A stretch of 64,000 nucleotides of DNA from an uncultured bacterium (GTDB taxonomy: Bacteria > Verrucomicrobiota > Kiritimatiellia > CAIVKH01). The notes under the pieces were generated by a model. The model did no database searches and was not told the DNA's origin. It saw nothing but the letters and a program-made list of their open reading frames with translations. The position numbers and the translations under genes were made by a program. Position 1 is the stretch's first letter; the number at the start of each line of letters is the position of its first letter. Positions 39,980 through 61,526 of this stretch are shown one piece after another. The DNA lies in the NCBI GenBank assembly GCA_937958885.1, contig CALGMT010000001.1:21735-85734 (forward strand). Direction: 5' to 3'.

Positions 39980-39990
39980 GAGTCCGCTCC

Positions 39991-42524: not shown

Positions 42525-42589
42525 GCGACGGAGTGTAAGCGAGGCGCCCCCCGTGCTCAAATCCTATCGGCTCAGGCAAATGCCGGCGC

Positions 42590-46501: not shown

Positions 46502-46538
46502 ACAATCTTTGGCGGGTCCGGAGCCCCCGCCCTGCCGA

Positions 46539-47765: not shown

Positions 47766-49031
47766 TCACCAAAACGGCGTCGTGCGCTTGTCCACCACCA
47801 TCATGTGCGGGAAGCACGTGATGAATGAGCCGCCCTGTTCAAGGAATCGCTGATGGTTCCGAATGATGGGCTTCGAATGAACCCATGCAAGGATGACCGC
47901 GAATTCGGGCTTTTGCTCGTAAAGCGCAGAGGTCGGCAACACAGGGATGTGATGGCCGGGACTGTACATCCCCTGCTTCTCAGGATTGTCGTCGACGATA
48001 AACTTGAGCAACGGGCCGAGTTCGAAGTGATAAAGCAAAAGCGTGCCGCCACGCGCCGCGCCGAATCCCGCCAGCGTGTTCCCCTCGTTATGCAGTCGGC
48101 GCAGCAAGTCGCGCATCTCGTCCCGCACGCGATTGACCTCTGCGGAGAATTGCTTGAGCGTGGCGGGTTCGGCCAGCTTGCGTTCCCGCTCCAGCGCAAG
48201 CAGCGCATCCACGCTCGGCGCGACCGTGCGGGGACCGCCGATGCGCTGCGCGGCGCCGATTAGCGATCCCCCCTGAATCGAAACGCGCTCCACATCGAAT
48301 AGCTCCAACCCATGCCGCCGCAAAAACGATTGGAGCGCCGCGACCGTGTGATAGCAGAGATGCTCGTGAAAAATCGTGCCGAGCAGCATTTTGTCGACCA
48401 CGTCCATCAGGTAGGAGACTTCGAACACGAAGATGCCATCATCCGCGAGCAGTTCGCGCACGCTATCGGCCATGCCGGCCATGTCATCGGTGTGGGCAAA
48501 AACGTTGTTCGCGGATACGACGCGAGCGGGGCCGTAGTCCGCTCGCACGCGGCGCGCGAGTTCGGGCGTCATGAACTCCGGGAGCGTTTCGATGCCGCGC
48601 TCGCTCGCGAAGCGCGCAATGTTTTCCGCGGGGTCAATACCGAGCACGCGGCAGCCATGCTGTTTGAAAAAGCGCAGAAAGGTGCCGTCGTTGCTGCCGA
48701 TGTCCACCACCAACGCATCCTTCGGCACCGCATGCTTGCGAATAACAGCCGATGCGTACTCCTCAAAATGCTTCACCAAGCCTGGCGAATTGCCGCTGAA
48801 ATAGGTGTAGTGGCCGAACAAAATGTTCGGATTGACGACGTCGAGCAACTGGACATGACCGCACGCCCGGCACATGTACATATCGAGCGGAAAGCAGTCT
48901 TGCGGTTCGTGGAGGCGCTCTTTCGTCACATAGGCGTCGCCGGGCGGGGTAGCGGTGATGGGCACGACCAATTCAAGTTCGGACGAACCGCAGAGGCGGC
49001 ACGTCGTTCGACGGGTGACGGGTGCATTCAT
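47766..49031 (-). CDS. NDP-sugar C-methyltransferase family (TylCIII-like: zinc ribbon + class I SAM MTase + C-terminal domain)
   Basis: CRLCGSSEL...MCRACGHVQL (4-Cys ribbon). SAM motif I ALVVDIGSNDGTFLRFF. NNVFAHTDDMAGMADSVRELLADDGIFVFEVSY. C-terminal LAGFGAARGGTLLLYHF. Confidence 0.8.
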   Translation of the reverse strand: MNAPVTRRTTCRLCGSSELELVVPITATPPGDAYVTKERLHEPQDCFPLDMYMCRACGHVQLLDVVNPNILFGHYTYFSGNSPGLVKHFEEYASAVIRKHAVPKDALVVDIGSNDGTFLRFFKQHGCRVLGIDPAENIARFASERGIETLPEFMTPELARRVRADYGPARVVSANNVFAHTDDMAGMADSVRELLADDGIFVFEVSYLMDVVDKMLLGTIFHEHLCYHTVAALQSFLRRHGLELFDVERVSIQGGSLIGAAQRIGGPRTVAPSVDALLALERERKLAEPATLKQFSAEVNRVRDEMRDLLRRLHNEGNTLAGFGAARGGTLLLYHFELGPLLKFIVDDNPEKQGMYSPGHHIPVLPTSALYEQKPEFAVILAWVHSKPIIRNHQRFLEQGGSFITCFPHMMVVDKRTTPFW

Positions 49032-49112
49032 ATCAAGTCTCCAAAAGGCGCCTATTTCGCGGCGAAATCATAGGCATCCCGCGATCCGACTCAATAGCGC
49101 GCTTTCCTGTGG

Positions 49113-50036
49113 CTACGAGTCCGCAGGCAACACCAGCGGGCGCGGATCTGTGGTCAATCGTGGAAGTTCATCGATCGAAATCGCATCGATGCGCCGCACT
49201 TCATCCGGCGTCAACGCCACCTCGGCCGCGCGAAGACAATCCTCCGCGTTCTTCCATCGCATGCTGCCGGGGATGGGCAGGATGCACGGTGACCTTGCGA
49301 GAAACCACGCAATCATCAATCGCCACGGCGAAACACCGCGCGCCGCTGCCAATTCTGCCAATACACGGGTGTGGTGAAGCTGCTGCGCCAGCCCCAACCC
49401 GCCCACGGGACGGTACGGAAGAAAACAGATATTTTCCCGCTCGCAATAGGCCAACACGCCGTCCCGCTCCGGATCGCGGCACCAAAGGTTGTATTGATTC
49501 TGAACGGTGACGATGTCCACGACGGACCGCGCCTCTTCGATCTGCGCGACGGAGTAGTTCGAGATGCCCACGTGGCGCACCAGCCCCTCGTCCACCGCGC
49601 GGCGCGCGGCGGCCATGGAATCGCGAATCGGCACGCGAGGGTCCGGCCAATGATGCTGCCAGAGGGCGATCGGTTCTCGCCCGCCGAGCGCTTCATGGCT
49701 CGCGCGAATAACGTCGTACAAATGCTCTGGCGCGCCTTTTCGCAGCCATCGCCCATTGACGCGAATCGCGCCGCCCTTGGTGGCCACCACGATGCGGGAG
49801 GCATCGCCTGTCCAGGAGGACAGCGCGCGCGCAATGAGCTTCTCGTTGTGGTGCTGATCGCGCTCGTCGTCGCAATACGAATAGGCGGTGTCAATGAACG
49901 TGACCCCGAGATCGAAGACACGGTGGAGGGTGTCGATGGCCTCCGCTTCGGGCACGCGTTCGAGCGAGAGGGCCATCGCGCCGTAGCCGACAATGCTGAC
50001 GCGCGTTTCGGTGTTCCCCAGTAGTCGCTCGCGCAT
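49113..50036 (-). CDS. Aldo/keto reductase
   Basis: VSIVGYGAMALS...GVTFIDTAYSY...HWPDP...GISNYS. 307 aa. Confidence 0.85.
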   Translation of the reverse strand: MRERLLGNTETRVSIVGYGAMALSLERVPEAEAIDTLHRVFDLGVTFIDTAYSYCDDERDQHHNEKLIARALSSWTGDASRIVVATKGGAIRVNGRWLRKGAPEHLYDVIRASHEALGGREPIALWQHHWPDPRVPIRDSMAAARRAVDEGLVRHVGISNYSVAQIEEARSVVDIVTVQNQYNLWCRDPERDGVLAYCERENICFLPYRPVGGLGLAQQLHHTRVLAELAAARGVSPWRLMIAWFLARSPCILPIPGSMRWKNAEDCLRAAEVALTPDEVRRIDAISIDELPRLTTDPRPLVLPADS

Positions 50037-50047
50037 CGCGCCTGCTC

Positions 50048-51082
50048 CTACAGCGCGATCAGGCAGCGCCCGTTGACTGCGCCGCTGCGCATGTCGGCGA
50101 TGGCTTGGTTGATCTCGGTCAGCGGATATCGGCGTCCAACCAGCGGCGCAAGGTCCAGCTTTCCATGCTCGACGAGGCGCACGTAGCGCGGGATATCGAT
50201 ATCTGGCACCGACTCGCCGCCGTGCGACCCCTCTAGTTCTTTTTCAAAATGAAGCGGCAGCGTGTAGATCGACACCAAGTCGCCCTTCTTCGGAACTCCG
50301 ACGAGTATTGTGCGTCCGCGGGCAGAGGTCAGTCGATAGGCCATCTCGATCACGCGAGGCTGACCGGTATTGTCCACCGCCACATCGAGTCCTGAAACAC
50401 CGATGAGCGCACGAATCTCGGCCTCGACATCCCGGCCATCGGCCACGATCCCGTGCGTGGCCCCAAGCTTTTTCGCGAGCTCGACCCGGCCGGGATGCAC
50501 ATCGACGGCGATGATCGGATACGCGGACACCATCGCGGCGGCTTGGACGATGTTGAGACCGATCCCGCCCGCGCCCAGAACCGCGATCGACTCGCCGATG
50601 CGAAGCCGTGCATTGTTGTTAACAACGCCGAAACCCGTCGTGACCGCGCACCCCATCAGTGCGGCAGATTCCGGATCAAATGCCGGAGGCACTGGCGTCA
50701 ACCGGTTTTCCGAAATGATAGCCATTTTGTTGAACGTGGTGACCCAGCCCGCATTGATCGGGCCGATAGGCGAATCATACCGGGGCGCGGGGGCCTCGAT
50801 CCCCGACGCGCGCCGCCAGTGCAGGACGACACGATCGCCGGACTTCACGCGCTTGACGCCATCCCCGCATTCCAACACCTCGCCGCAGCCTTCGTGCCCG
50901 AGGAGATGCGGCAGGTACGGATCGGGTCCCTTCACGCCGTCGATTTCGCCGAGCTGCGAACCGCAGATGCCGCTGGTGAAGAGGCGGACCAACACCTGCC
51001 CATACCGCAAAGGCGGGATTTCGATTTCCACGAGTTCCAGCGGCTTGCGCTGCTCGACGAGAACGGCGGCGAGCGTTTTCAT
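50048..51082 (-). CDS. Zinc-dependent alcohol dehydrogenase (MDR family)
   Basis: SGICGSQLGEIDG...LGHEGCGEV (catalytic Zn ligands). Rossmann VLGAGGIGLNIVQAA. 344 aa. Confidence 0.85.
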   Translation of the reverse strand: MKTLAAVLVEQRKPLELVEIEIPPLRYGQVLVRLFTSGICGSQLGEIDGVKGPDPYLPHLLGHEGCGEVLECGDGVKRVKSGDRVVLHWRRASGIEAPAPRYDSPIGPINAGWVTTFNKMAIISENRLTPVPPAFDPESAALMGCAVTTGFGVVNNNARLRIGESIAVLGAGGIGLNIVQAAAMVSAYPIIAVDVHPGRVELAKKLGATHGIVADGRDVEAEIRALIGVSGLDVAVDNTGQPRVIEMAYRLTSARGRTILVGVPKKGDLVSIYTLPLHFEKELEGSHGGESVPDIDIPRYVRLVEHGKLDLAPLVGRRYPLTEINQAIADMRSGAVNGRCLIAL

Positions 51083-51086
51083 GCGA

Positions 51087-51743
51087 TCATTCGAAATAAA
51101 TGAAGGAGTGGTCGCCGGTGTAACCGGTCAGCTTGAACCACCACGCCCACTCCTCGGGCGTGCAAAACATTTCGCAGGTCAATTGCCAGTAGAGCAAGTT
51201 CACCTTTTCCTGCTCATTGCGATAGGATTCGACGCAGAGATACTTCCGCTTTGCGACGCGTTCCATCTCCTTGAGCGCATCGTACAGCTCGTAGCAGTAC
51301 AGGTTGTGCAGCGTGTTGATACTGATGGCGAGATCGAAGGAACCGTCCTCGAATGGAAGCTTGCTCGCCGAACAGACGCGCAGGAATGGTTTAACCTCTT
51401 CCTTTGCGTGCTCGATTGCGTAACTTGAAATATCGATGCCTGCAACTTCGAGGCCGGGCACGACCTGCGTCAGGTCATACAGCAGAAACGCCTTGCCGCA
51501 GCCAATATCGAGCACGCGCATGCCCGGCTTCAATTGGTAGTGATCCGCCATCGCCTGCGCGACAGAGCGCCAACGTCCGTCATAGCGGTAGCCTCCGTAG
51601 CCCGTCTTGCGGTCGCCGTCCCAATAGTCCACCGCCCACTGCTTCGCAAGGACGGCGGCTTCCGCCTTTGGAAACTCGTTCACCCGCGCGAGGTAGTCGC
51701 GCTTTGTGGCTTTGTGGACGCTTGAAAGAAAATCGATATACAT
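51087..51743 (-). CDS. Class I SAM-dependent methyltransferase (218 aa)
   Basis: Trimmed to ATG 51743 (MYIDFLSSVHKATKRDYL). Motif I MRVLDIGCGKAFLLYDL. Motif II/III FDLAISINTLHN. Confidence 0.8.
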   Translation of the reverse strand: MYIDFLSSVHKATKRDYLARVNEFPKAEAAVLAKQWAVDYWDGDRKTGYGGYRYDGRWRSVAQAMADHYQLKPGMRVLDIGCGKAFLLYDLTQVVPGLEVAGIDISSYAIEHAKEEVKPFLRVCSASKLPFEDGSFDLAISINTLHNLYCYELYDALKEMERVAKRKYLCVESYRNEQEKVNLLYWQLTCEMFCTPEEWAWWFKLTGYTGDHSFIYFE

Positions 51744-51745
51744 GA

Positions 51746-52669
51746 TTACGCCTCCAGCGCGCGCGCAATGCGCTCCGCGATTTGCTCGCCGCGCAGACCG
51801 CAAATCCCGCGCGCGTATTCCTGCTCGCCCGATTCATGGCGAAATTCGTCCGGCATGCCGAAGCGCAGCACACGCGGACCGCGGGCATCGGCGTCGGCGG
51901 CCCATTCGAGCACGGCGGATCCGAATCCGCCGGCAAGCGCATGTTCCTCGATCAGCGCGACGAGCCGGTGCCGTCCGAAAATCAACGACAGCAATTCGGC
52001 ATCCAGCGGCTTGACGGTCGGCATGTGAACGACTTCGGCCGCAATGCCGCGCGCAGCGAGCGCATCCGCTGCATGAAGCGCCTCGGCCAACACAAGCCCT
52101 GTCGCGATCAAGCAAGCATGATCGCCCGAGCGCAGCGAGCGCCCCTTGCCGATCTCGAATGGCGGTGGGTTCGGATCCAACGTAGGCTCGCCTTTTTTGC
52201 CGATCCGAATATAAACCGGTCCGTCGTGCGCGAGCGCGGCGCGCAACGCGGTACGCGTCTCTGGCGGATCGGCGGGCGCAAGGACGGTCAACCCTGGCAG
52301 CGCGCGCAGAATCGCCATGTCCTCAAATGAGTGGTGCGTGGGGCCAAGCGAGGCATATGACAACCCCGCACCGACCCCGACAATTACCAGCGGGGCCTCG
52401 TTGTAGCACACATCGAGCTTAATTTGTTCGAAGCAGCGCGCGGTGATGAACGTCGTGATCGTATAGGCGACCGGTTTGAGTCCGGAAAGAGCCATTCCCG
52501 CGCCGACGCTGATCATATTCGCCTCGGCGACGCCGCAGTTGAAGAAGCGACCGGGGCATTTCGCTTGAAACTCATTGAAGAGGCGGTTGCCGATGTCGCC
52601 GGAGAGCAGGTGAATCCGCGCGTCGGCCTGCGCGAGCCGGGTGATCTCGTTGGCGAACGCGTTTCTCAT
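51746..52669 (-). CDS. Transketolase, C-terminal (pyrimidine-binding) subunit
   Basis: Track ORF 51746..53377 is over-extended. ATG 52669 gives MRNAFANEITRLAQADARIHLLSGDIGN...FFNCGVAEANMISVGAGMALSGLKP...GPTHHSFEDMAILRALPGLTVLAPAD. ATGA overlap with the N-terminal subunit stop. Confidence 0.85.
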   Translation of the reverse strand: MRNAFANEITRLAQADARIHLLSGDIGNRLFNEFQAKCPGRFFNCGVAEANMISVGAGMALSGLKPVAYTITTFITARCFEQIKLDVCYNEAPLVIVGVGAGLSYASLGPTHHSFEDMAILRALPGLTVLAPADPPETRTALRAALAHDGPVYIRIGKKGEPTLDPNPPPFEIGKGRSLRSGDHACLIATGLVLAEALHAADALAARGIAAEVVHMPTVKPLDAELLSLIFGRHRLVALIEEHALAGGFGSAVLEWAADADARGPRVLRFGMPDEFRHESGEQEYARGICGLRGEQIAERIARALEA

Positions 52670-53487
52670 GCGAGCCCCAGCTCCTTGCGCGCTTTTTCCA
52701 CTTCTTCCGCCGTGGGCACGCGGTAGTGCCAGTTGTTGTCGTCCTCCATGAAGGAGCACCCCTTGCCCTTCACGGTGTGGCAAATGGCGATGCGGGGACG
52801 TTCTGAAGGCGGCGCGGACAGAAAATCCACCAGCGCCTGCATGTGATGACCGTCGAATTCGACAGCGTCCCAACCAAAGGCAGCCCACTTTTCGCGGAGC
52901 GGATTCAGCGCGAGCACTTCGTCGCTGCGGCCTGTCGCTTGCCACTTGTTGTAGTCCACCATCGCGACGACATTCGTCAGCTTGTTCGCGGCTGCGAACA
53001 GCGCGGCCTCCCAGGTCGAGCCTTCGTTGCACTCGCCATCGCTGATGATCGCGGCGACCCGGTAGGATTTTCCGAGCGAGCGAGCGGCGAGCGCCATTCC
53101 GAGACCGACCGCCAAGCCGTGACCGAGCGAACCGGTCGCCACCTCGACGCCGGGCGCGGTGTGCGGACCCGGATGCTCTTGAAAACGCGATCCCTCGCGG
53201 TTGAAGGTCAACAGGTCCTCGCGCGGGAAATAGCCTCGATACGCGAGCGCGGTATAGAGCGACATCGCCGCATGGCCTTTGCTCAAAATCACGCGATCGC
53301 GGTCCGGATCGCGGGGATTTGCGGGCGTAACGTGGAGCGCGCCGCTGAAGTAGCACGCGACCAACATGTCCACGCACGAGAGCGCCGAGCCAAGATGCGG
53401 CGTGTCGGCGCGATGCGACATGCCGATGACCTCGCCGCGCATTTCGGCGGCGATTCGTTCCAATTCGGAAATGGAGGGGCGGCTCAT
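52666..53487 (-). CDS. Transketolase, N-terminal (ThDP/diphosphate-binding) subunit
   Basis: ATG 53487 (MSRPSISELERIAAEMRGEVIGMSHRADTPHLGSALS). ILSKGHAAMSLYTAL. ThDP motif IISDGECNEGSTWEAALFAAANKLTNVVAMVDYN. Confidence 0.85.
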   Translation of the reverse strand: MSRPSISELERIAAEMRGEVIGMSHRADTPHLGSALSCVDMLVACYFSGALHVTPANPRDPDRDRVILSKGHAAMSLYTALAYRGYFPREDLLTFNREGSRFQEHPGPHTAPGVEVATGSLGHGLAVGLGMALAARSLGKSYRVAAIISDGECNEGSTWEAALFAAANKLTNVVAMVDYNKWQATGRSDEVLALNPLREKWAAFGWDAVEFDGHHMQALVDFLSAPPSERPRIAICHTVKGKGCSFMEDDNNWHYRVPTAEEVEKARKELGLA

Positions 53488-54476
53488 GGCTTGTGCTGAT
53501 ACGCGCGGGGCGCGTCCTTCAAGTCGTTCCACCACTCGCGCATCCAGCGTACGGTGTCATCCACAATCGTTTCCAACTCGCGCGTAGGCGTCCAGCTCAG
53601 TTCCTCTCTCGCGCGCGTCGAATCCAACAAATAGGCGGCGTCCTGCCCCAGCCGCGCCGGAGCGACGTCCACGCAGTCATCGAACGATACCCCCATGCGC
53701 GCGCAAATCATCTCGACGAGTTCACGGATGCTCGCGCGCCGCTCGGTGGAGAAATGATAGACCGAGCCCGGCTTGGCTCGCTCCGCGACCCGTCGCGTGC
53801 CTTCGCACACATCTTCGATGTGGATGAACGAGCGCACGGACGTGCCCCCGCCTTCGAGTTTGAGCCGCTCTCCCGAAAGGATGCAGAAGATCGTGCGCGG
53901 CACGATGCGGTAGAGCGCCTGCGCGGGTCCGCACACGTTCGCCGAGCGCGTGAACGCGACGGGGAATCCGTACGCCCGCTGGTAGGCAAAAAGGTTCATG
54001 TCGCACGCGGCTTTCGAGACCGCGTACGGCGTGCTCGGATTGTACGGGGCGTCTTCGCGAACAAGTCCGGATGTGTTGCCGTAAACCTCCGGCGTGGAGG
54101 CCTGCACGAATTTTTTGATAAAGGGAAATTTTCGCAGCTCGTCATGCAGCGCGGCCATCGCCAGCAGATTCGTCCGGTACCAGTCGAGCGGACGCTCCCA
54201 ACTTTGCGCGACCATGCCTTGCGCGGCAAAATTCACCACATACTCCGGCTGGAATTCCGCGACCAGGCGGACGAGCCGGGGCAGGTCGCTGTTGAGATCG
54301 ATCTGGTGGAACTGAAAGTTCCGCGCGTCCGCCCATCGGTACGGCAAGAACGCGGGAATCGGCTCGGGCGAGCGGCTCACGCCGATCACGGCGTCGCCGC
54401 GCGCGAGCAGGTGGGCGACATAGCTGGCGCCGGAGAACGAGTTGCTGCCGATGACGAGATGTCGCGCGCCGCTCAT
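53484..54476 (-). CDS. NAD-dependent epimerase/dehydratase (extended SDR), 330 aa
   Basis: Track ORF 53484..55031 is over-extended. ATG 54476 gives MSGARHLVIGSNSFSGASYVAHLL (Gly-rich NAD motif). ASTPEVYG. YAVSKAACD (YxxxK). Confidence 0.8.
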   Translation of the reverse strand: MSGARHLVIGSNSFSGASYVAHLLARGDAVIGVSRSPEPIPAFLPYRWADARNFQFHQIDLNSDLPRLVRLVAEFQPEYVVNFAAQGMVAQSWERPLDWYRTNLLAMAALHDELRKFPFIKKFVQASTPEVYGNTSGLVREDAPYNPSTPYAVSKAACDMNLFAYQRAYGFPVAFTRSANVCGPAQALYRIVPRTIFCILSGERLKLEGGGTSVRSFIHIEDVCEGTRRVAERAKPGSVYHFSTERRASIRELVEMICARMGVSFDDCVDVAPARLGQDAAYLLDSTRAREELSWTPTRELETIVDDTVRWMREWWNDLKDAPRAYQHKP

Positions 54477-55498
54477 TTCAGCCCAATCTTTTTCATGCGC
54501 TGGATATTGAAATACCGATCGTTCGTCATCGAATCGGGCAACAATCCGGCGCGGAATGCCTTGATCAGATCGCGCGCGCCGTCCTCGATCGTGAAGCGCG
54601 GCGTGAACCCGAGCACGCGGCGTATTTTCTCGGACGAAATGTGATAGGATCGAATGTCGTTCGACGGAGTCGTCACAATCTCGATGTCGCCGCGATCGGG
54701 CATTTCGCGCAGCACGACCTCGCGGACGACGCGCGCGGTTTCGGACACGCTGAAATTCTGATATGCGGCGTTGAAGATCTGCCCGGCGATGGGATCGTCC
54801 TCCATCCGCAGCAACAGAAGATACAAATCGATCATGTCCTGCATGTGCAGATTGGGCCGCATCTGCGAGCCGCCAAAAACCGTAATTTTTCCTGCATTCA
54901 CCGCGTGGTTGGTGAGGATGTTGACCGTGAGGTCGAGCCGCTGGCGCGGGGAATAGCCGCAGATCGTCGCGGGCCGCACGATGACCGGCGCGAAATTCGG
55001 CGATTGCGCCTCCAGCAGCACCGGTTCGCACATGGCTTTGAACTTGTTGTAGAGCGAAACGGGCACGAGCGGGTGCTCTTCCGTCACGTTCGGATCATCG
55101 CTCACGCCATACACGCTGCCGGAAGACGCGTGAATGAACCGGCGAACGCCCGCGTCGCGAGCCAAGCGGACGAGCGGAATGAACGCCTCATAGTTGATCG
55201 TCCGGCTGAGCGACTCGTCGAGCTCGACGCTCGGATCGTTCGAAATGCAGGCGAGGTGAATCACCGCGTCGCACCCCGTCAATGCACGGCGGACCAACTC
55301 CGTATCGCGTATGTCGCCCTCGATTTCCTCAAGGTTCGGGTTTCCCCGGACGGCGTTCAGCGGCTCGCGCCCATAGATGTAGAGATCGAGCACCCGAACG
55401 GCATAGCCGGCTCGGAGCAGTTGCGGAACCAGCACAGCGCCGACATAGCCGGCGCCGCCGGTGACCAGTATGCGGTCGAATTTGCGCGATTCGCTCAT
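54473..55498 (-). CDS. NAD-dependent epimerase/dehydratase (extended SDR), 341 aa
   Basis: ILVTGGAGYVGAVLVPQLL (GxxGxxG), HASSGSVYG, YNKFKAMCE (YxxxK). Confidence 0.8.
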   Translation of the reverse strand: MSESRKFDRILVTGGAGYVGAVLVPQLLRAGYAVRVLDLYIYGREPLNAVRGNPNLEEIEGDIRDTELVRRALTGCDAVIHLACISNDPSVELDESLSRTINYEAFIPLVRLARDAGVRRFIHASSGSVYGVSDDPNVTEEHPLVPVSLYNKFKAMCEPVLLEAQSPNFAPVIVRPATICGYSPRQRLDLTVNILTNHAVNAGKITVFGGSQMRPNLHMQDMIDLYLLLLRMEDDPIAGQIFNAAYQNFSVSETARVVREVVLREMPDRGDIEIVTTPSNDIRSYHISSEKIRRVLGFTPRFTIEDGARDLIKAFRAGLLPDSMTNDRYFNIQRMKKIGLK

Positions 55499-56094
55499 GA
55501 AACTCCTTCCGCAGGCGTCTGCGCCTGCACCATGTCCATGTAATTATGCAAAATGACGGCGTGTGCGGATTCGGCGAATCCGTACGCGCGGGCCGGCACA
55601 TAGAAATTCAAATCGCCCGATTGCCGCAGCGGGTTGTCCTGCGCCATCGCCGAAAGGGTCACCAGCGTGAGGCCGCGCTCGCGCGCGACGCGCGCGGCGG
55701 CGAGGACATTCGGGGATCTGCCGGAGCTGCTGATCGCGATCAGCATGTCGCCCTCCGACGCGCGGCGTTTGAGCGGCTCGGCGAAGACTTGCTCGAAGCT
55801 GATGTCGTTCGAGATGGCCGTAATGAGCGAGAGATCGGAGAACACCTCCGTGTGCAGGTGGCCGTTTTTCGCGAGATCCGCCGCGAAGTGGCTGGCCATC
55901 GACGCGCTCGCGCCGTTGCCGATCAGATAAATCGCGCGCCGGTTCTCGCGCAACTCCAGCGTGCGCGCGCACCAGCGCGCGAAGCCCTCGTTCGGATCGA
56001 GCTCCGCGCCCGCGCGATCGCGGACGGACAGCGCGCGCAGGGTGTCCAAGAGGGCTTCGAGGTGTTGCGACCAGTGTGCGTTCATGCGGATCAT
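55495..56094 (-). CDS. SIS-domain sugar-phosphate isomerase, GmhA-like (sedoheptulose-7-phosphate isomerase family)
   Basis: ATG 56094 (MIRMNAHW). IYLIGNGASASMASHFAADLAKNG and LIAISSSGRSPNVLAAARVARERGLTLVTLSA match the GmhA/SIS pattern. 199 aa. Confidence 0.8.
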   Translation of the reverse strand: MIRMNAHWSQHLEALLDTLRALSVRDRAGAELDPNEGFARWCARTLELRENRRAIYLIGNGASASMASHFAADLAKNGHLHTEVFSDLSLITAISNDISFEQVFAEPLKRRASEGDMLIAISSSGRSPNVLAAARVARERGLTLVTLSAMAQDNPLRQSGDLNFYVPARAYGFAESAHAVILHNYMDMVQAQTPAEGVS

Positions 56095-57620
56095 TTCAAC
56101 AGCGTTTCGATTTGCTTGATCAGGCCCGCGCGGTCGATGGATTTTTCGTTGCCGACCACCGACACGGCCCACGCGCCCGCGACATTGCCCGCGAAGGCCA
56201 CCATCTCGGCCGGCGCGCCGACCGCCGCCAGCAGCGAAGAAACGGAGAGCGACGCATCGCCGGCCCCGACCCGATCCACCACTTTCTGCGCCAGCGCGGG
56301 CACGTGATGGAAACCGGTTGCGCGGTCGAGCACAATACTGCCGCGGCTGCCGCGCGTAACGGTGATGAGCGGGCAGTCGAGTTTCGCCGACAGCGCGGTC
56401 ATCATCGGCTCGACTTCCCCGCGCAGATCGCGCGCCTCGAGCCGCATTTCTTTTTCCGCCAGCGAGATAAAGTCTGCGCGCGGATACTTCGAAATGACAT
56501 TGTATCCGTGGTTTCCGGCGTTGGCCTGCGTGTTCAGGCAGAGGAACTTCGCGCGCCGCGCGAGGATCTCCACGGCGCGCGGGGTGATCATGCCGTGCCC
56601 GAAGTCAATGACGATCACCACATCGAACTGCGGCACAAGGCGCTCCAGGGCCTCGCAGACGGCGGCGTCGTCCTCGGGCTCCAACGCGGCGTCGTTGATG
56701 TGATAGACCTCGAGCATTTTGGTAAAGAAATAGTGTTCGATGAGGCGTTTTTTCACGATCGTCGGCGAATTCCGCCGCACAAGGTAATGCGCGTCGATCG
56801 TCGGCTTGACGTGTTCGCGGATGAACTCCAACTGATCGTCGCGATCGCCGATCTGGGTCGCCATCGCGACGCGATCGACGAAGGCGGCGACGTGATTGGC
56901 CGCAGCGAGGATGCCGCCCGCGAAGCGTTTGGAATACAGGCTTTTCACCGCGAGCGTCGGCTCCTTGGAGGACTTGCCGATCGCCTCGCAGAATTCGTAG
57001 TCGTCGATGATCGCCTCCCCCACCAGCAGTACGGAACGGGTGCCGGCCTCGGCGAGGCGCTCCCGGATGGCGGCGGCCGGGTGCCGCTTGCCGAACGCGG
57101 AGAGGAAATCCTTGACCTCGGGGGAATAGCCGGAGGCGTAGCGGTTGATGAGGTTGGAGGAACTGAAGACGATATCGTCGGTGAAGGCGATGGTCCCGCC
57201 GATGGAGGTGACGGCATCCTGTTCCAGTTGGATGCCGCCGGTCGCGTCGTTCTTCGCGTCCCGATATTCGGACCCTTTCACATAGATGTCCGGCTTGAGC
57301 AGATGGATTGTTTCGACAGCGGTCGGCCACTGGTTGAGCGCGACGGCATCGACCATGTGGAGGGCGGCGATCGCCTCTAGGCGAAGCGCCTCGGGAAACG
57401 CCGGGCGGTCGGGGCCCTTGTTGACGAAGCGATCCGGCGTGACGGTGACGACGAGCACATCGCCCATTTCGCGCGCGAGCTTGAAATGGCGGATGTGACC
57501 GATGTGCAGCAGATCAAAGCAGCCGTGACAGTGGACAACTTTGCGACCGAGCAGCTTCTGTTCCGAAATCCATTCGGCGAGCTTTTCGAGCGTGAAGTAT
57601 TTTGAAGGGTCGGGGGCCAT
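56091..57620 (-). CDS. Bifunctional nucleotidyltransferase (cytidylyl/adenylyl-transferase, N-terminal) / PfkB-family sugar kinase (C-terminal)
   Basis: N-terminal VVHCHGCFDLLHIGHIRHFKLAREMGDVLVVTVTPD (HxGH nucleotidyltransferase motif). C-terminal PfkB signature VVDRVGAGDASLSVSSLL. Domain order is the reverse of E. coli HldE. Confidence 0.8.
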   Translation of the reverse strand: MAPDPSKYFTLEKLAEWISEQKLLGRKVVHCHGCFDLLHIGHIRHFKLAREMGDVLVVTVTPDRFVNKGPDRPAFPEALRLEAIAALHMVDAVALNQWPTAVETIHLLKPDIYVKGSEYRDAKNDATGGIQLEQDAVTSIGGTIAFTDDIVFSSSNLINRYASGYSPEVKDFLSAFGKRHPAAAIRERLAEAGTRSVLLVGEAIIDDYEFCEAIGKSSKEPTLAVKSLYSKRFAGGILAAANHVAAFVDRVAMATQIGDRDDQLEFIREHVKPTIDAHYLVRRNSPTIVKKRLIEHYFFTKMLEVYHINDAALEPEDDAAVCEALERLVPQFDVVIVIDFGHGMITPRAVEILARRAKFLCLNTQANAGNHGYNVISKYPRADFISLAEKEMRLEARDLRGEVEPMMTALSAKLDCPLITVTRGSRGSIVLDRATGFHHVPALAQKVVDRVGAGDASLSVSSLLAAVGAPAEMVAFAGNVAGAWAVSVVGNEKSIDRAGLIKQIETLLK

Positions 57621-57653
57621 GGATATGGAAAAGCGGATATAGTCTGGGCGCGA

Positions 57654-59648
57654 TCAAGGCGTGACAATCTCGAAATCGTACACAAATAGAAAATTTGGCG
57701 GACCGGCGAGCGTTTTCACGGCCAGTTGGTCGCCGGGCGCAAGGTCCCACGGACCCCATTGGGCCTGCCAGCCGTCCGATTTCCCGACCTGCTCTTCGGA
57801 CAAGCGCACCCATTGACCGCCGCGGACCAACCAGATCGAGAGGCGGCCCGACGCGGGCGCCGCGCCGCGCGCGCGAACGACATAGGAGGCGGGCGCGGGA
57901 AGGGCCAGCGCCAGCCGCGCGTCCTCCGCGGTGGGAGCGGCGAGAACGATGCCCTCGCGGGTTTGCGCATAGCGCCAGCCCGCGCCGGTGGGCCAGATGG
58001 AGGGCCGGCCCGCCTGCATGCGCTCGCGCCAAATTTCTTCCGGGGTGCGCCAGCGCGCGACAAACGCGGCCATATCCTGCATCTTGTAGCCGTGCGGGCT
58101 GAAGCCCCAGCGCCACAATTTCGCGAGCGTCGGATCGTGGAATCGCGCGCTGTTCGGGAACTGCGTTGTCCAATTCCATAATTCCTGATGCGGATAGAAT
58201 GCGCTCGTCGGGGGCTCCGTGATCAGCACCGTTTCGGGATAGCGGCGGAAAACATCGCGCGCCTGATCGCTCCGCCACGCGTACACCTCGCGCGGGATGC
58301 CGGCGTTCGGGTGATCCGCATAGACCGCCTGACGCCCGGGCGTCGCCAGCGCGCCGGGCACTTCCCTGAGAAAGTAGCCGTTGCGCCACATGTAGAGCCC
58401 GCCCGGCGGCACGTGCTCGATGATCCAGTCGCGGGTGATCGAAAACGGCATCAGCTTGTCGCGGATCGCATACAGGGTTTGAAACGGGGCGCGATGCCAC
58501 AGCGCGAGCAGCGCGGTTGCCGCGACGGCTACCACACGGCCCGCGAGTGCGCTGCGCGCGGCGAGACGTTCGTGCACATCCGCCAATCCGATACCCGCAA
58601 ACGCAATGAAGGGGAGGAAGACGACCGCCAAATAACGCGGATAGAAGTCGCGCATCAGCACCGCGAAAAAGATTAGCGTCGGCACCACGACTAACGCTGC
58701 ATGCGCCGCGAACCACGCGCGGGGAGCGCGACGCCAGGCCGCGAAAATCCCCCACCCCAGCGCGAGCGCGAACGCCGCCATCCGGCCTTCACCGCGCCCC
58801 CATCCGAACGCCGCCAATTGATAGGCAAATAGATCAAATGTCAGCGGCTCGCGCACATCGGCGACAACGCCCGCGCCGCCCGCGGCTGCAAGCGGAAACG
58901 GAAGGAACGGCATGGCGGCGAGCACGATGACGGCCATCATCACCAGCGGCCCGGACCAAACCGGGGCGGACGGATCCTTTCGACGGACGCGCGCCGCAAC
59001 GGATATGAAGGCGAGCAGGCCGAGCGTGGCCGCGAAGAACCACGAGATCATGTGTGTGAAAAACATCCCGACCAAGCCGATCAGCAACAAGGCCGCCCAG
59101 CGCGCCGCCGAACCCGTCGGCGGTCCGGCCTGCGCGCCGAGGCGAATCGCGGCGCACATCGACACGGCTTGAAAAAACAGCAGCGGCCCATAGCTGGTCG
59201 CGTCGCGCGATTGGTAGATGTGGAAAAATGAAATCGCGGCCAGGAGCCCGGTCCACCCGCTCGCACGCGCGCCGTACAGGTCGCGCATGAGCAGCATCAG
59301 CAGCGGAACGGTCAGCGCGCCGAACAGCGCGAACGGCAGGCGCACGCGCGCCGCCAGATCGGTCAACGACGCGCCGCTCTCCGTGCGCAGCATGAGGTTC
59401 GCCAGCACGTATTGCATCGGCATGTGCTGGCCGGTGAAGCCCGTGAGACGGGCGTCGAAAATCGCGCGGACGATTTCGCCGGGTGTCTTGGGCGGGGCCG
59501 CGAAGGAAATGACGGTGATCTCGTCGATCCAAGGCGAGGCGCCGCCAAGGTGGTGGAGCCGCAACCCGAGCGCCAACAGCGTGATCGCGGCAAGCGCACA
59601 TCGCGCGGGTTTCGAAATTGCTTCGAATCGGAGCGCGGCCGGCTTCAT
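57654..59648 (-). CDS. GT-C fold glycosyltransferase (PMT_2 / ArnT-like family) with C-terminal periplasmic domain
   Basis: LLALGLRLHHLGGASPWIDEITVISFA (loop-1 DE motif). More than 10 hydrophobic segments over ~420 aa, then a ~240-aa soluble C-terminus. Confidence 0.75.
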   Translation of the reverse strand: MKPAALRFEAISKPARCALAAITLLALGLRLHHLGGASPWIDEITVISFAAPPKTPGEIVRAIFDARLTGFTGQHMPMQYVLANLMLRTESGASLTDLAARVRLPFALFGALTVPLLMLLMRDLYGARASGWTGLLAAISFFHIYQSRDATSYGPLLFFQAVSMCAAIRLGAQAGPPTGSAARWAALLLIGLVGMFFTHMISWFFAATLGLLAFISVAARVRRKDPSAPVWSGPLVMMAVIVLAAMPFLPFPLAAAGGAGVVADVREPLTFDLFAYQLAAFGWGRGEGRMAAFALALGWGIFAAWRRAPRAWFAAHAALVVVPTLIFFAVLMRDFYPRYLAVVFLPFIAFAGIGLADVHERLAARSALAGRVVAVAATALLALWHRAPFQTLYAIRDKLMPFSITRDWIIEHVPPGGLYMWRNGYFLREVPGALATPGRQAVYADHPNAGIPREVYAWRSDQARDVFRRYPETVLITEPPTSAFYPHQELWNWTTQFPNSARFHDPTLAKLWRWGFSPHGYKMQDMAAFVARWRTPEEIWRERMQAGRPSIWPTGAGWRYAQTREGIVLAAPTAEDARLALALPAPASYVVRARGAAPASGRLSIWLVRGGQWVRLSEEQVGKSDGWQAQWGPWDLAPGDQLAVKTLAGPPNFLFVYDFEIVTP

Positions 59649-59650
59649 AC

Positions 59651-60484
59651 TTACAGGCCGCGCTTGAGCGGGAGCGGTTCCACCATCGGGTCGCGGCGCG
59701 GGGCGATCCGCCCTTCTCCGGCCACGCGAAAGCTGCCGTCGCCGTCAGGCGCGAGACGAACCGCATTCACATCGCCCTCCACCGTGCGGCGCGATAGGCG
59801 CATGGCTTCCGGCGAAAACACACTGTGAACGAACTGGTTCGGACCCGACAGGTGCAGCACGTGCACGTTGCCGCGGGCATCCACTTCTAGCGCCGGCCGC
59901 CCGATCCGGACGAAGCGCCCCAAATCGGCAACCCCGTAGCAGGCGGTCTCGGTCTCGTTGTCGCTCCGCAGAAAGAGCCGATCGCGTTTGTCGCGATTCA
60001 ACACGCGCAGGGTGTAGGTGCGAAGCTCGCCCGCCGGCGTGTGCGCCTGTAGGCGGGCGACCTCGCCGCCGGGCGTGACATCGAAAAACATTTTATCGGT
60101 GACATAGGACCGATTGCCGACAACAAGGCGCGCCCGCACCGAAAGGGCGGAATACCGGCCGATCGGAAAAAGCTGCAGCAGATCATTCGTGAAGGACACG
60201 GCGGTATTCGGGGGAATCTCCGCGGGCGATACGATGCGCGCGTCCGGGAGCGGATGCACCAGCAGGCCCTGCGCATCGGTCACTTCGAACGCGAGCGTGT
60301 AGCCCTGCGTGCCGCCGGAGGCGAGCGCGGTCGAGCGCTCATTCTTCAACGTGACGACGATCGGAATGGATTCGCACACGAGCGCCTCGGCGTGCGGCAG
60401 ACGCGCCGTGAACTCCACCTGCGCGGAGGCTGATGCGGCAAGGCACGCCACGGATGCATACAAGAAGGGGCGAAATTTCCGCAT
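59651..60484 (-). CDS. Secreted protein of unknown function
   Basis: Trimmed to ATG 60484 (MRKFRPFLYASVACLAASASAQ = signal peptide). Beta-rich and 277 aa. Its stop lies 2 nt before the GT-C gene start. Confidence 0.5.
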   Translation of the reverse strand: MRKFRPFLYASVACLAASASAQVEFTARLPHAEALVCESIPIVVTLKNERSTALASGGTQGYTLAFEVTDAQGLLVHPLPDARIVSPAEIPPNTAVSFTNDLLQLFPIGRYSALSVRARLVVGNRSYVTDKMFFDVTPGGEVARLQAHTPAGELRTYTLRVLNRDKRDRLFLRSDNETETACYGVADLGRFVRIGRPALEVDARGNVHVLHLSGPNQFVHSVFSPEAMRLSRRTVEGDVNAVRLAPDGDGSFRVAGEGRIAPRRDPMVEPLPLKRGL

Positions 60485-60494
60485 GGCACGCTCC

Positions 60495-61217
60495 TCACCG
60501 ACCCACGGCAAGCCGGGCGGCGATGCGACCCGGCAGACCCGCGTCTAAAATCTTCTTCTGCGTTTTTTCGATATCATACGCCACGCGGCGCAGCTCGATC
60601 AGATTGTTGAACATGTCGAACACCACATACGCCGCCCGCGGATCGCCGTCCCTCGGCTGGCCCACGCTGCCGACATTGATGAAATATTTCTTTCCCAGGC
60701 CCACTTTGATTTTCGTGTACAGGCCGAACCGGATCGTGTCCGTCCGCTCGAATGCGAGCGGGACATGGGTGTGGCCGTAAAAACAAAGCGTCGTGGTCTG
60801 ATAGTTGAAGTTCGCTTCCGCTTCCAGACGGTCGAACACGTACCCCCACTGCTCCGGCATGTCGAGGGTGCTGTGCACAATCGTGAAGGTCTCGACCGGA
60901 CTGACGTAGCGCAAACTGCGCAGCCACGCCTGCTGTTCCTGCGAGAGCTGTTTTCGCGTCCACGCCACGACGTCCGCCGCGAGCGGGTGAAACCCGTTGA
61001 GGTCGTCCGCGTGCGAACAATAGTGATCGTGGTTGCCCCGCACGCAGGCGCACTTGAGCGCGCGAATTTTTTCCAGGCACTCCACGGGGTTCGCGTTATA
61101 GCCCACGATGTCGCCGACACACGCGTAATGGGTGACGCCCTGCGATGCCGCGTCTTCAAGGACCCGGTCCAGCGCCTCCAGATTGGCGTGAATATCGCCT
61201 AATATCGCGTACTTCAT
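60495..61217 (-). CDS. Metallophosphoesterase (calcineurin-like, YfcE/MJ0936-type)
   Basis: MKYAILGDIHAN, CVGDIVGY, RGNHDHY, FYGHTHVP, NVGSVGQPRDGD. Confidence 0.8.
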   Translation of the reverse strand: MKYAILGDIHANLEALDRVLEDAASQGVTHYACVGDIVGYNANPVECLEKIRALKCACVRGNHDHYCSHADDLNGFHPLAADVVAWTRKQLSQEQQAWLRSLRYVSPVETFTIVHSTLDMPEQWGYVFDRLEAEANFNYQTTTLCFYGHTHVPLAFERTDTIRFGLYTKIKVGLGKKYFINVGSVGQPRDGDPRAAYVVFDMFNNLIELRRVAYDIEKTQKKILDAGLPGRIAARLAVGR

Positions 61218-61220
61218 TTC

Positions 61221-61526
61221 TCAACCGTACCGAATCTCAAACTGATGAAACTCGCCCGTCCCCGGCGACCACTGCACCCGCTCCCCGCGCACGAACCGAT
61301 ACACCCCCATCGCGCGCAGACTGTCCAGGAACCGCAGAAGACTCTCCTCCGCGCCCTCCGCGACCACGCGCACGGTGCCATCCGGCTCGTTCCGCACAAA
61401 TCCAACCACCGGGTGCCGGCGAGCGGTCTCGATGACGCTGAACCGGAAGCCCACCCCCTGCACATGTCCGTCGAATACCACGCTTAAGCGCCGTTGGGAT
61501 GCCACGCTCTCTTTCTGCGCCCTCAT
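61221..61526 (-). CDS. acyP: Acylphosphatase
   Basis: VVFDGHVQGVGFRF and VGFVRNEPDGTVRVVAEG are the two acylphosphatase signatures. The track start 61544 is TTG, and I prefer ATG 61526. Confidence 0.85.
   Translation of the reverse strand: MRAQKESVASQRRLSVVFDGHVQGVGFRFSVIETARRHPVVGFVRNEPDGTVRVVAEGAEESLLRFLDSLRAMGVYRFVRGERVQWSPGTGEFHQFEIRYG

Follow-up and report, generated by a model that had tools for sequence, protein, structure and literature searches.

Within the 64-kb stretch of DNA analyzed here (the window), an ORF check places fourteen co-directional open reading frames on the minus strand (g1 to g14, Table 1). The coordinates and junctions were rechecked and agree with the preliminary description of the locus, which had reported fourteen genes, five consecutive ATGA overlaps and no gap above 81 nt. 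Actually, the gap is -4 at g5/g6, g6/g7, g7/g8, g8/g9 and g9/g10, the other intergenic gaps are of 2-33 nt and the maximum (81 nt) separates g13 from g14. A sigma-70-like match is found within this last gap, upstream of g14, the match count being that expected from shuffled sequence. Pfam agreed with every domain call made in that description.

We have compared the gene order with that of related contigs. The genes g4-g14, from the putative GT-C protein to the C-methyltransferase (47766-59648), appear in the same order in 4/4 of them (L081-L084), with identities of 74-89%, and CMT2 and WbuC are conserved as well. It is this synteny that indicates a non-chance arrangement; the ATGA overlaps are not the proof of it. 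Besides, eight of the g4-g14 genes recur together in Alphaproteobacteria. The genes g1-g3, in contrast, are lineage-specific: they are found in the 86%-identity relatives (L083, L084), and an opposite-strand sulfatase takes their place in the 76%-identity relatives (L081, L082). Their membership of the pathway is doubtful, and the proposal that the metallophosphoesterase might replace GmhB is therefore without support from conservation, the gene lying outside the conserved block. On sequence grounds, the functional unit is g4-g14 plus CMT2 and the WbuC cupin. This redraws the unit of fourteen genes first described, of which g4-g14 stand and g1-g3 do not, and which had missed the two genes on the plus strand. 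In the window, two purine-catabolism genes stand between the CMT2/WbuC pair and g14.

Table 1. Genes of the locus, with positions in the window and the searches on which their assignments are based.
Gene	Assignment	Position	Strand	Basis
g1-g3	Acylphosphatase (g1), metallophosphoesterase (g2), secreted protein without family (g3)	59651..61526	-	Pfam
g4	664-aa polytopic membrane protein, putative GT-C (PMT/ArnT-like) glycosyltransferase	57654..59648	-	Pfam, weak
g5	Fused nucleotidyltransferase (N-terminal) and PfkB sugar kinase (C-terminal), HldE-like, reversed domain order	56091..57620	-	Pfam CTP_transf_like + PfkB
g6	GmhA-like SIS ketose-phosphate isomerase	55495..56094	-	Pfam SIS_2
g7	Extended SDR, nearest to C. 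jejuni Cj1427-type NDP-heptose C4 dehydrogenase	54473..55498	-	PDB
g8	NDP-sugar 4,6-dehydratase-like SDR, Bradyrhizobium gdh orthologue	53484..54476	-	TIGR01181, PDB
g9	Split transketolase, ThDP/PP-domain subunit	52666..53487	-	Pfam Transketolase_N; PDB 6yak, E 2.7e-63
g10	Split transketolase, Pyr + C-terminal subunit, remodelled acceptor pocket	51746..52669	-	Pfam Transket_pyr + Transketolase_C; PDB 6yaj, E 9.8e-53
g11	218-aa class I SAM methyltransferase	51087..51743	-	Pfam Methyltransf_31/11/25
g12	Zn-dependent medium-chain alcohol dehydrogenase	50048..51082	-	Pfam ADH_N + ADH_zinc_N
g13	Aldo/keto reductase	49113..50036	-	Pfam Aldo_ket_red, 198.9 bits
g14	NDP-4-ketosugar 3-C-methyltransferase (TylCIII/TcaB9/MtmC type)	47766..49031	-	Pfam, PDB
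CMT2	Second TylCIII-like C-methyltransferase	43511..44740	+	Pfam Methyltransf_13/14
WbuC	WbuC-family cupin, CMT2 partner (DUF6016 in relatives)	44737..45303	+	NCBIfam TIGR04366, 135.5 bits (cut-off 42)

The best NCBIfam matches of g5 were HldE, rfaE_dom_I and rfaE_dom_II, all under cut-off, and its more than 7000 homologues are spread over many phyla. For g6 the top four were all phosphoheptose isomerase models (63-78 bits, under their cut-offs). A heptose-type front end had been proposed, and these best matches, to GmhA and to HldE domains I and II, agree with it; so does the Pfam order, CTP_transf_like and then PfkB, with the observation that kinase and transferase domains stand in the opposite order to E. 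coli HldE. The GmhA/HldE equivalog level was not reached in NCBIfam by g5 and g6 (73-144 bits versus cut-offs of 209-521). As had been pointed out before, neither GmhB nor HldD was convincingly found in the 64-kb window: the sole HAD/GmhB match was a 54-aa stretch inside g9 (E 6.6e-4), and the heptose_epim model scored 61.9 bits on g7 versus a cut-off of 274.6. The top PDB match of g7 was 6vo6/6vo8 (E 1.9e-39); it carries the motifs SSGSVYG and YNKFK, lacks the dehydratase Glu/Asp and is 44% identical to SDR1 of the Bradyrhizobium operon described below. The second extended SDR, g8, has the motifs T-P-E and YAVSK, scored 189 bits with TIGR01181 (under cut-off) and matched dTDP-glucose 4,6-dehydratases of the PDB at E 7e-45. 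Since the NCBIfam matches of g5-g8 are all under equivalog cut-offs, a different ketose phosphate could serve as substrate.

In an alignment with E. coli TktA and the characterised split transketolase (TK) of C. hydrogenoformans, the ThDP-binding and catalytic residues H26, H66, H100, D155, N185, H261, E411 and H473 (E. coli numbering) are all conserved in g9/g10, with H26, H66, H100 and H261 in g9, and R358, E411 and H473 in g10. The canonical residues S385, H461, D469 and R520, which we take to be the sugar-phosphate and acceptor residues of the enzyme, are missing from g10, replaced by R/N, G, L and K. Canonical TK requires H461, D469 and R520 for sugar phosphates, and both reference enzymes have these three. 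Their replacement was seen in 20/20 locus-associated TKs, and the g10 signature in 117/120 of the best database homologues and also in most metagenomic relatives. The three residues are replaced in Bradyrhizobium and Methylocystis too, and the Bradyrhizobium enzyme has the identical active-site signature. We surveyed the ThDP-enzyme content of 80 NT-kinase loci and found that TK (19/80) and PDH-E1 alpha/beta pairs (11/80) share one slot and never occur together (0/80), with YerE-like ThDP enzymes in 6/80. In the metagenome loci seeded with TK (contigs of at least 12 kb), 19/19 G461-type TKs stood among SDR, DegT, GT2, NTP-transferase or cassette genes, and around the four canonical H461 TKs no cassette or sugar-tailoring markers were detected. 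The G461 type appears as well in clusters without a heptose front end, arranged SDR > TK > DegT. Judging from the altered pocket and from these sugar-tailoring contexts, g9/g10 is a specialised pathway transketolase and not the housekeeping enzyme, the reading that the preliminary description had set against its own proposal. R358, R/N385 and K520 keep positive charge, so that the acceptor may be a sugar phosphate, ahead of nucleotide activation.

These data bear on whether TK only supplies the precursor, making sedoheptulose-7-P from pentose phosphates, in which case the product would be an ordinary seven-carbon 6-deoxy, C-/O-methylated heptose. We consider this unlikely, because H461, D469 and R520 are replaced throughout this subfamily among the TK-associated loci and kept in the functional C. 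hydrogenoformans enzyme, because PDH-E1 pairs, unable to make sedoheptulose-7-P, fill the slot of TK, and because the same TK type serves SDR > TK > DegT clusters that have no heptose front end, although the intact catalytic and donor residues, the positive residues persisting at the phosphate-binding place, and minimal loci in which TK comes right after NTK-SIS with few tailoring genes (L031, L034, L035) would suit such a role. Bradyrhizobium and Methylocystis presumably carry ordinary pentose-phosphate or CBB transketolases, which also counts against it.

The most conserved partner of TK is g11 (64-66% identity to its counterparts in the operons of Methylocystis and Bradyrhizobium), and it adjoins TK in many loci. 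The alcohol dehydrogenase g12 is 44-46% identical to that of the same operons, and g13 is limited to the Verrucomicrobia-type version: L081, L083 and L089 have it, and the loci of Methylocystis and Bradyrhizobium lack it. In g14 we found the N-terminal zinc-ribbon, SAM domain, C-terminal Methyltransf_14 and full-length likeness that characterize the TylCIII/TcaB9/MtmC/KijD1 enzymes (Methyltransf_13 67.9 bits, Methyltransf_14 148.9 bits; TcaB9 at E 7e-72 over the full length). The TylCIII-like C-methyltransferase named in the preliminary description was thus confirmed by its match to the mycarose 3-C-methyltransferase, PDB 4rv9, at E 1.7e-90 over residues 8-413. CMT2 shares this architecture at lower Pfam scores; it is 65-70% identical to a gene convergent to, and directly after, g14 in L081 and L083, and Methylocystis holds a homologue. 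In the same way, the WbuC cupin is 64-65% identical to the DUF6016 gene beside g14 in the relatives; with the copy in Methylocystis the identity is 45%.

At the other end of the conserved block, g4 adjoins g5 in the relatives too. It contains at least seven hydrophobic segments and ends in a soluble part of 279 aa; the loop motif W40-I-D-E43 is invariant. The GT-C transferase first proposed here is a weak assignment: Pfam PMT was just over its cut-off (25.3 versus 22.7 bits), PMT_2 was under it (17.4 versus 26.1) and there was no PDB sequence match, profile search included. The AF2 model had a pLDDT of 39.6. We regard g4 tentatively as a putative GT-C glycosyltransferase. The window contains no polyprenyl-phosphate glycosyltransferase able to feed such an enzyme.

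There is a genetically studied relative of this gene set. In photosynthetic Bradyrhizobium (ORS285, ORS278, BTAi1), a gdh operon of eleven genes has been implicated in O-antigen synthesis with bradyrhizose, an unusual ten-carbon sugar to which the cluster is tied by genetics: gdh insertions abolish the bradyrhizose O-antigen, a mutant phenotype that may be polar (Busset et al. 2016, PMC4743980). The published gdh primers map within the SDR2 gene of two Bradyrhizobium loci, L087 and L088 (reverse 0-1 mismatches, forward 4, amplicon 381 bp), and g8 is 51-52% identical to this gene over the full length and is its orthologue. From the primer sites, the eleven-gene count and the genus name we infer that the ORS285 cluster around gdh (gene BRAO285v1_100023) is the L087/L088 operon. 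It is co-directional, with 11 genes, and 8 of them are orthologous to window genes (27-66% identity, 27-37% for the front end) in near-identical order: the NT-PfkB fusion, SIS, SDR1, SDR2 (gdh), both TK subunits, the methyltransferase (218 aa here, 220 aa there) and Zn-ADH. The remaining three of the 11, NTP_transferase, a HAD-like protein and an APH-like kinase, were without match in the window, which adds in turn the aldo/keto reductase, two TylCIII-type C-methyltransferases, the WbuC cupin and the putative GT-C protein. Among cultured organisms, the fullest match was a chromosomal cluster of Methylocystis bryophila (AP027149.1, about 3.007-3.023 Mb) with orthologues of NTK, SDR1, SIS, SDR2, TKN, TKC, ADH, MT11, CMT, DUF6016/WbuC and CMT2. 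It differs in having the HAD-like and APH-like pair and NTP_transferase, as Bradyrhizobium does, an adh_short protein instead of the aldo/keto reductase and a GT2 instead of GT-C. The locus is kin to the bradyrhizose-linked operon.

Similar chemistry has been proposed elsewhere. The split-gene TKs of the miharamycin and amipurimycin clusters are proposed to move a hydroxyacetyl group to keto sugars (PMC12247030, section 2.3). The 13 known split-gene TK candidates are all from Streptomycetes, with proposed activity, and according to this review no TK has yet been demonstrated on a ketone or NDP-sugar acceptor (PMC12247030). Again in this case the split TK lies in a sugar-tailoring cluster beside a keto-forming oxidoreductase, as g9/g10 does, and in the proposed reaction a C2 ketol unit passes to a keto sugar; they differ in being Streptomyces nucleoside-antibiotic clusters, and the likeness is drawn from the published description. 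For the C-branching of keto sugars, the accepted catalysts are of the E1 and YerE types. YerE (ALS-like) and AviB1/B2 or KbDH (PDH-E1-like) use ThDP to attach two carbons to an NDP-ketosugar, as is proposed here for TK, and the product is a tertiary alcohol; E1 pairs and ALS-like enzymes hold the position equivalent to TK in sister loci, but they belong to another branch of the ThDP superfamily. TK donors yield a dihydroxyethyl (glycolyl) unit, and the YerE/E1-type a hydroxyethyl (acetyl) unit. The ADP-heptose pathway and Campylobacter GDP-heptose tailoring share with the window the GmhA-like isomerase, HldE-like domains and Cj1427-like SDR. The differences from the ADP-heptose pathway are the reversed NT-kinase, the scores under equivalog level and the absence of GmhB/HldD, and the gene content downstream indicates far more elaborate chemistry than in either route. 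The statement that the set does not fit the known route holds for HldD and GmhB, but has to be amended for the two precedents, the bradyrhizose operon and the proposed split-TK branching. The gene set corresponds in part to a known pathway, through its genetic link to bradyrhizose.

The front end could also act on something other than a heptose, SIS and NT-kinase activating another ketose phosphate, e.g. a TK-made octulose or nonulose as in the lincosamide octose route, with tailoring afterwards. All the best matches of g5 and g6 are heptose enzymes, among solved structures a GDP-heptose dehydrogenase comes nearest to g7, and the chain-first route needs a TK accepting a normal aldose phosphate, against which the altered pocket argues. 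Scores of g5 and g6 far under the HldE and GmhA cut-offs speak for the idea, as does g5 being 27% identical to the Bradyrhizobium NT-kinase versus 44-66% for the tailoring genes, a difference that makes the front end a swappable module; we give this reading a rather low probability. That independent genes for sugar and redox enzymes lie side by side by chance, with no single pathway, is very improbable given the five 4-nt overlaps, the identical order in four relatives and the co-occurrence of 8-11 genes in Verrucomicrobiota, Methylocystis and Bradyrhizobium, even with a sigma-70-like match before g14 at the shuffled count.

Taking the heptose-based pathway, each of its steps is assigned from family membership. 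Sedoheptulose-7-P would be isomerised by g6, and g5 would phosphorylate it and attach the nucleotide to give NDP-heptose; the conserved block has no 7-phosphatase for this second step. The 4,6-dehydratase-type g8 and the Cj1427-like g7 would then produce a 4-keto, probably 6-deoxy, intermediate, whose carbon beside the C4 ketone would be methylated by g14 and CMT2, and the WbuC cupin may use the same intermediate. Dihydroxyethyl-ThDP, formed by g9/g10 from a ketol donor, would add the C2 unit to a sugar carbonyl, which would be the ketone at C4 or else an aldehyde produced at C7 by g12. The ketone so formed would have its redox level set by g12 and g13, and a further methyl would come from g11. 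In the last and weakest step, g4 might move the finished sugar off a lipid carrier, outside the cytoplasm. The C-branched and/or C-methylated higher sugar foreseen in the preliminary description thus becomes a probable C2-extended, C-methylated one, and the locus would, on balance, encode a sugar-nucleotide pathway that has been widely transferred and leads from a heptose to a C2-extended, methylated higher sugar, here in its Verrucomicrobia-type version.

The minus strand carries a run of fourteen open reading frames (g1-g14) whose gene content and junctions are as the preliminary description gave them, and Pfam recovered all the domains named there (see the table). Stop and start codons overlap as ATGA at five junctions (g5/g6, g6/g7, g7/g8, g8/g9 and g9/g10). 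The remaining intergenic gaps measure 2-33 nt, with the exception of 81 nt ahead of g14, the last gene. This gap holds a sigma-70-like pair, TTGAGT-16-TATGAT, that carries no weight alone because the region has just as many such matches as shuffling predicts; scans for consensus promoters and terminators likewise gave matches at the shuffled expectation. The G+C content is about 63% across the whole window.

Features of the sugar locus and its surroundings. Positions are those of the window unless a contig is named; identities are between the window protein and its counterpart in the Bradyrhizobium operon.
Feature	Position	Strand	Assignment	Identity
Run g1-g14	61526-47766	-	14 open reading frames	
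g1		-	Pfam: acylphosphatase	
g2		-	Pfam: metallophosphoesterase	
g3		-	secreted, without family	
g4		-	Pfam: membrane protein, weak PMT/PMT_2	
g5 (NT-PfkB)		-	Pfam: CTP_transf_like-PfkB fusion	27%
g6 (SIS)		-	Pfam: SIS_2	29-37%
g7 (SDR1)		-	Pfam: extended SDR	44%
g8 (SDR2, gdh)		-	Pfam: extended SDR	51-52%
g9 (TK-N)		-	Pfam: Transketolase_N	61-62%
g10 (TK-C)		-	Pfam: Transket_pyr + Transketolase_C	57-59%
g11		-	Pfam: 218-aa class I methyltransferase	65-66%
g12		-	Pfam: Zn-ADH	45-46%
g13		-	Pfam: AKR	
g14		-	Pfam: Methyltransf_13/14 C-methyltransferase	
Sigma-70-like pair	49067-49094	-	in the gap before g14	
(S)-Ureidoglycine aminohydrolase	within 45278-47306	-	TIGR03214, 267 bits, above NCBIfam cut-off	
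M20 amidase	within 45278-47306	-	allantoate amidohydrolase-like	
Methyltransf_13/14 and DUF6016 gene pair	43511-45303	+	second C-methyltransferase and WbuC-family cupin	
tRNA-Val	43421-43492	+	anticodon TAC	
AI-2E family transporter	41400-42560			
Phosphoglucomutase/phosphomannomutase and 400-aa hexapeptide-repeat protein	38624-41193	-	few kb beyond the locus; the latter like the GlmU acetyltransferase half	
APH-like/HAD-like/NTP_transferase trio, Bradyrhizobium contig L087	7656-8435 and 13873-15511		alongside fused NT-kinase	
Same trio, Methylocystis contig L086	4049-4747 and 11964-13645		alongside fused NT-kinase	

The nearest match found for the g5 fusion in a genome search was an uncultured Verrucomicrobia MAG (76% identity). 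In four relatives, contigs with 76%- and 86%-identical proteins, the eleven genes g4-g14 are present with their order unchanged. Genes g1-g3 were found in the 86% relatives only, and an opposite-strand sulfatase fills their place in the 76% relatives, so that we regard them as lineage-specific neighbors and not as core. Directly after g14, all four relatives carry a convergent DUF6016 gene and a second Methyltransf_13/14 gene. The window counterparts of this pair (64-70% identity to the relatives' copies, the smaller gene scoring as a WbuC-family cupin) are parted from g14 by two purine-catabolism genes; in the relatives the pair adjoins g14. These two genes were considered and dropped, the cupin just downstream of g14 as a sugar epimerase and the M20 gene as a pathway member, given their purine-catabolism assignments. 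The tRNA-Val, sole RNA match of an Rfam scan, precedes the second C-methyltransferase by 18 nt and forms one border of the sugar locus. It could be an island boundary; the flanking G+C is no different.

We have compared the residues of the split transketolase g9/g10 with those of E. coli TktA and of the characterized split transketolase of Carboxydothermus hydrogenoformans, to which it is most similar (PMC7661550). The cofactor and donor-side residues H26, H66, H100, D155, N185, H261, E411 and H473 (E. coli numbering) are all kept, H100 being the one that sets transketolases apart from DXS (PMC7661550). The substitutions found in g10 are S385 to R/N, H461 to G, D469 to L and R520 to K. We take these four positions to be the contacts of the sugar phosphate and of the acceptor C2-hydroxyl. 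An identical pattern appears in all 20 split transketolases adjoining NT-kinase genes in other genomes and, among the 120 database homologues closest to g10, in 117. Judged by these residues, g9/g10 is a distinct conserved transketolase subfamily and not a housekeeping enzyme. Beyond g9/g10, the 64-kb window gave no other transketolase match.

Two surveys of genomic surroundings bear on what this transketolase does. In the first, 80 genome loci were collected with the NT-PfkB fusion protein as seed, and about 30 of them had a ThDP enzyme just downstream of the NT-kinase and SIS genes. Split transketolases (19 loci) and PDH-E1 alpha/beta pairs (11 loci) were never together, and ALS/YerE-like enzymes were present in six loci. 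Carbon branching of NDP-keto sugars is the accepted role of E1-type and YerE-type enzymes, and for miharamycin and amipurimycin split-gene transketolases have been proposed to carry a hydroxyacetyl group onto a keto sugar; the 13 known split-gene candidates are all from Streptomycetes, none of them assayed (PMC12247030). The second survey, independent of the first, took the transketolase as seed over metagenomes and yielded 23 loci of 12 kb or longer. Every one of the 19 loci with a G461-type transketolase sits among sugar-nucleotide tailoring genes; 11 bear cassette or front-end markers, the rest showing arrangements such as SDR > TK-N > TK-C > DegT aminotransferase. Around the four canonical H461 transketolases of these metagenome loci, a screen for cassette and sugar-tailoring markers found none. 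The preliminary description had offered two roles, supply of sedoheptulose-7-phosphate or addition of a C2 branch. Both surveys disfavor the transketolase as precursor supplier and argue for tailoring. The split transketolases with G461 and L469 appear to be a widespread class forming C-C bonds on sugar nucleotides, and the most interesting element of the locus. A literature search found nothing relevant tying transketolase to nucleotide sugars, bradyrhizose, or heptose in an O-antigen or C-methylation setting. One metagenome contig (Ga0334722_10000479) holds two split pairs of the g10 subfamily, one on each strand, alongside genes of the NT-kinase, HAD, SDR, APH-like and C-methyltransferase types.

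Bradyrhizose was described in 2011. The cultured methanotroph Methylocystis bryophila has a g10 homologue at 61% identity, in a locus with orthologues of the NT-PfkB fusion, SDR1, SIS, SDR2, both transketolase subunits and the ADH. Shared as well are both C-methyltransferases, the smaller methyltransferase g11 and the DUF6016/WbuC cupin. Busset et al. 2016 (PMC4743980) called the biosynthesis genes of bradyrhizose unknown, found that the bradyrhizose O-antigen is lost when gdh carries an insertion, and placed gdh in an eleven-gene operon conserved across six photosynthetic strains. Their gdh primers encode DAFLPYK and DMSLRTYF, the g8 counterparts being PAFLPYRW and DMNLFAYQ. With the Methylocystis SDR2 as query we found many proteins with both primer peptides, including one cluster with members named Bradyrhizobium sp. 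The primers map within the SDR2 gene of a Bradyrhizobium MAG contig (L087) and of a soil contig (L088), with 1 and 0 mismatches respectively for the reverse primer and 4 in each for the forward one, and their spacing of 381 bp fits the 300-400 bp fragment of the paper (PMC4743980). In both contigs SDR2 is gene 5 of exactly eleven co-directional genes, in the order NT-PfkB, NTP_transferase, SDR1, SIS, SDR2, TK-N, TK-C, Zn-ADH, weakly HAD-like, APH-like kinase and 220-aa methyltransferase. Window orthologues exist for 8 of the 11, and the transketolases of both Methylocystis and Bradyrhizobium share the g10 substitutions. The tailoring genes are far better conserved than the front end, so the pathway looks modular.

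We read the locus as a new version of the kind of pathway that genetics has tied to bradyrhizose in Bradyrhizobium. Unlike the Bradyrhizobium and Methylocystis loci, the window has no APH-like kinase, weakly HAD-like protein or RmlA/ManC-like NTP_transferase, and it adds extra C-methyltransferases and the AKR with respect to the Bradyrhizobium operon. Its product is therefore probably a different relative with more methyl groups. The missing trio is reminiscent of a second, AmgK/MurU-style route for activating a free sugar. We also considered the C4-branched sugar of Rhodopseudomonas palustris as a match and rejected it, since the cluster proposed for it uses a YerE-like enzyme and an aldolase.

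At the front end, the top NCBIfam matches of g6 and g5 are GmhA and HldE domains I and II, far under the equivalog cut-offs, and the HldE-type domains of g5 stand in reverse order; no match among g1-g14 was above its curated NCBIfam cut-off. Over 7000 proteins from many bacterial and archaeal phyla belong to the g5 fusion family at E < 1e-30. PMC11461863 summarizes the NDP-heptose enzymes reported across kingdoms, nucleotidyltransferase-kinase fusions included (Tang et al. 2024), and describes an arginine (STTR5) that predicts CDP/UDP-heptose synthesis. At about residues 150-165, g5 has the motif GGTIAFTDDIVFSSSNLI, not the (F/L)xxGxSTT of heptose nucleotidyltransferases, and inspection by eye of this divergent motif did not reveal the STTR5 arginine five residues upstream. 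Among the g5-seeded loci (L006-L072), the fusion heads very diverse clusters in Nitrospirota (magnetotactic lineages included), Omnitrophota, Elusimicrobiota, Desulfobacterota, and DPANN and other archaea, apparently with no characterized member to our knowledge. They also hold radical-SAM/SPASM and B12-radical-SAM proteins, DegT aminotransferases, NeuB and three alternative ThDP enzyme types, and in 33 g5-seeded loci a 324-aa ArgZ-like Rossmann protein is located immediately upstream of the fusion.

For g7 the nearest solved structure in the PDB is 6vo6/6vo8 (E 1.9e-39), which is Campylobacter Cj1427, a GDP-heptose C4 dehydrogenase; the dehydratase acid/base pair is missing from g7. The second SDR, g8, is similar to dTDP-glucose 4,6-dehydratases and carries Thr-x-Glu and YxxxK. 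Full-length matches of g14 were to mycarose 3-C-methyltransferase (E 1.7e-90) and TcaB9 (E 7e-72), types of enzymes that use NDP-4-keto sugars, so that the pathway very likely passes through a 4-keto intermediate. Against the PDB, g11 matched generic methyltransferases only. In g4, the Pfam PMT match is barely above threshold, a WIDE motif is invariant and there are multiple hydrophobic segments. Neither the single sequence nor a 6-sequence profile of g4 matched the PDB, and a single-sequence AlphaFold model was unusable (pLDDT 39.6); we tentatively consider it a putative GT-C glycosyltransferase. The interpretation in the preliminary description, a C-branched or C-methylated sugar transferred by g4, was only partly supported. 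The window encodes no GmhB-type phosphatase, polyprenyl-phosphate glycosyltransferase, flippase or polymerase, which leaves the link between the nucleotide sugar and the putative GT-C enzyme unsupported.

Family membership and conservation suggest the following chemistry. Sedoheptulose-7-phosphate would be isomerized, phosphorylated and nucleotidylated, and oxidation or dehydration of the NDP-heptose would yield a 4-keto sugar that is probably also 6-deoxy. Methylation of the carbon adjoining the ketone would fall to the TylCIII-type enzymes, the transketolase would put a C2 ketol unit on a sugar carbonyl, the ADH and AKR would set the oxidation state, and g11 would add a methyl. The acceptor might be the C4 ketone, giving the tertiary alcohol typical of ThDP branching, or a C7 aldehyde formed by the Zn-ADH, the natural acceptor class for a transketolase. 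Judging from the engineering of the E. coli enzyme, loss of D469 suits an acceptor without an alpha-hydroxyl.

In bradyrhizose, a bicyclic sugar of ten carbons, the C1 aldehyde is able to close on O4, O5 or O9 (PMC9912281), from which we infer that C4 bears a hydroxyl and has a bond to C9. Joining a heptose and a C2 unit at C4 and at C7 would give exactly such a six-membered carbocycle, and one methyl would make ten carbons. We give limited probability to this route, which is our own and not a published scheme. The transketolase would join the C2 ketol unit to an NDP-4-keto-heptose derivative, and the ring would close by an intramolecular aldol reaction of that unit with whichever carbonyl is left (C4 ketone or C7 aldehyde), with a tally of 7 + 2 ring carbons plus methyls; the Verrucomicrobial locus would make a further C-methylated bicyclic sugar. 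That the g7-g12 cassette (two SDRs, G461/L469 split transketolase, 218-aa methyltransferase and Zn-ADH) is the missing enzymology of bradyrhizose-type carbocycle-fused sugars, with a C-methylated bicyclic product in the window and the G461/L469 transketolases as a family, seems to us rather unlikely. If true, these transketolases would be a large, previously unrecognized family forming C-C bonds on nucleotide sugars in many uncultured phyla.

The locus and its relatives offer a testable scheme for bradyrhizose, a heptose front end plus a specialized transketolase adding two carbons. The signature H461G, D469L, R520K separates the subfamily from housekeeping transketolases, to which annotation now gives identical names. 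Should the chemistry be confirmed, transketolases that take nucleotide-sugar carbonyls would offer a new biocatalytic way to tertiary alcohols and higher-carbon sugars, and the spread of the cassette over Verrucomicrobiota, Alphaproteobacteria, Nitrospirota and archaea would mean many undescribed cell-surface sugars.
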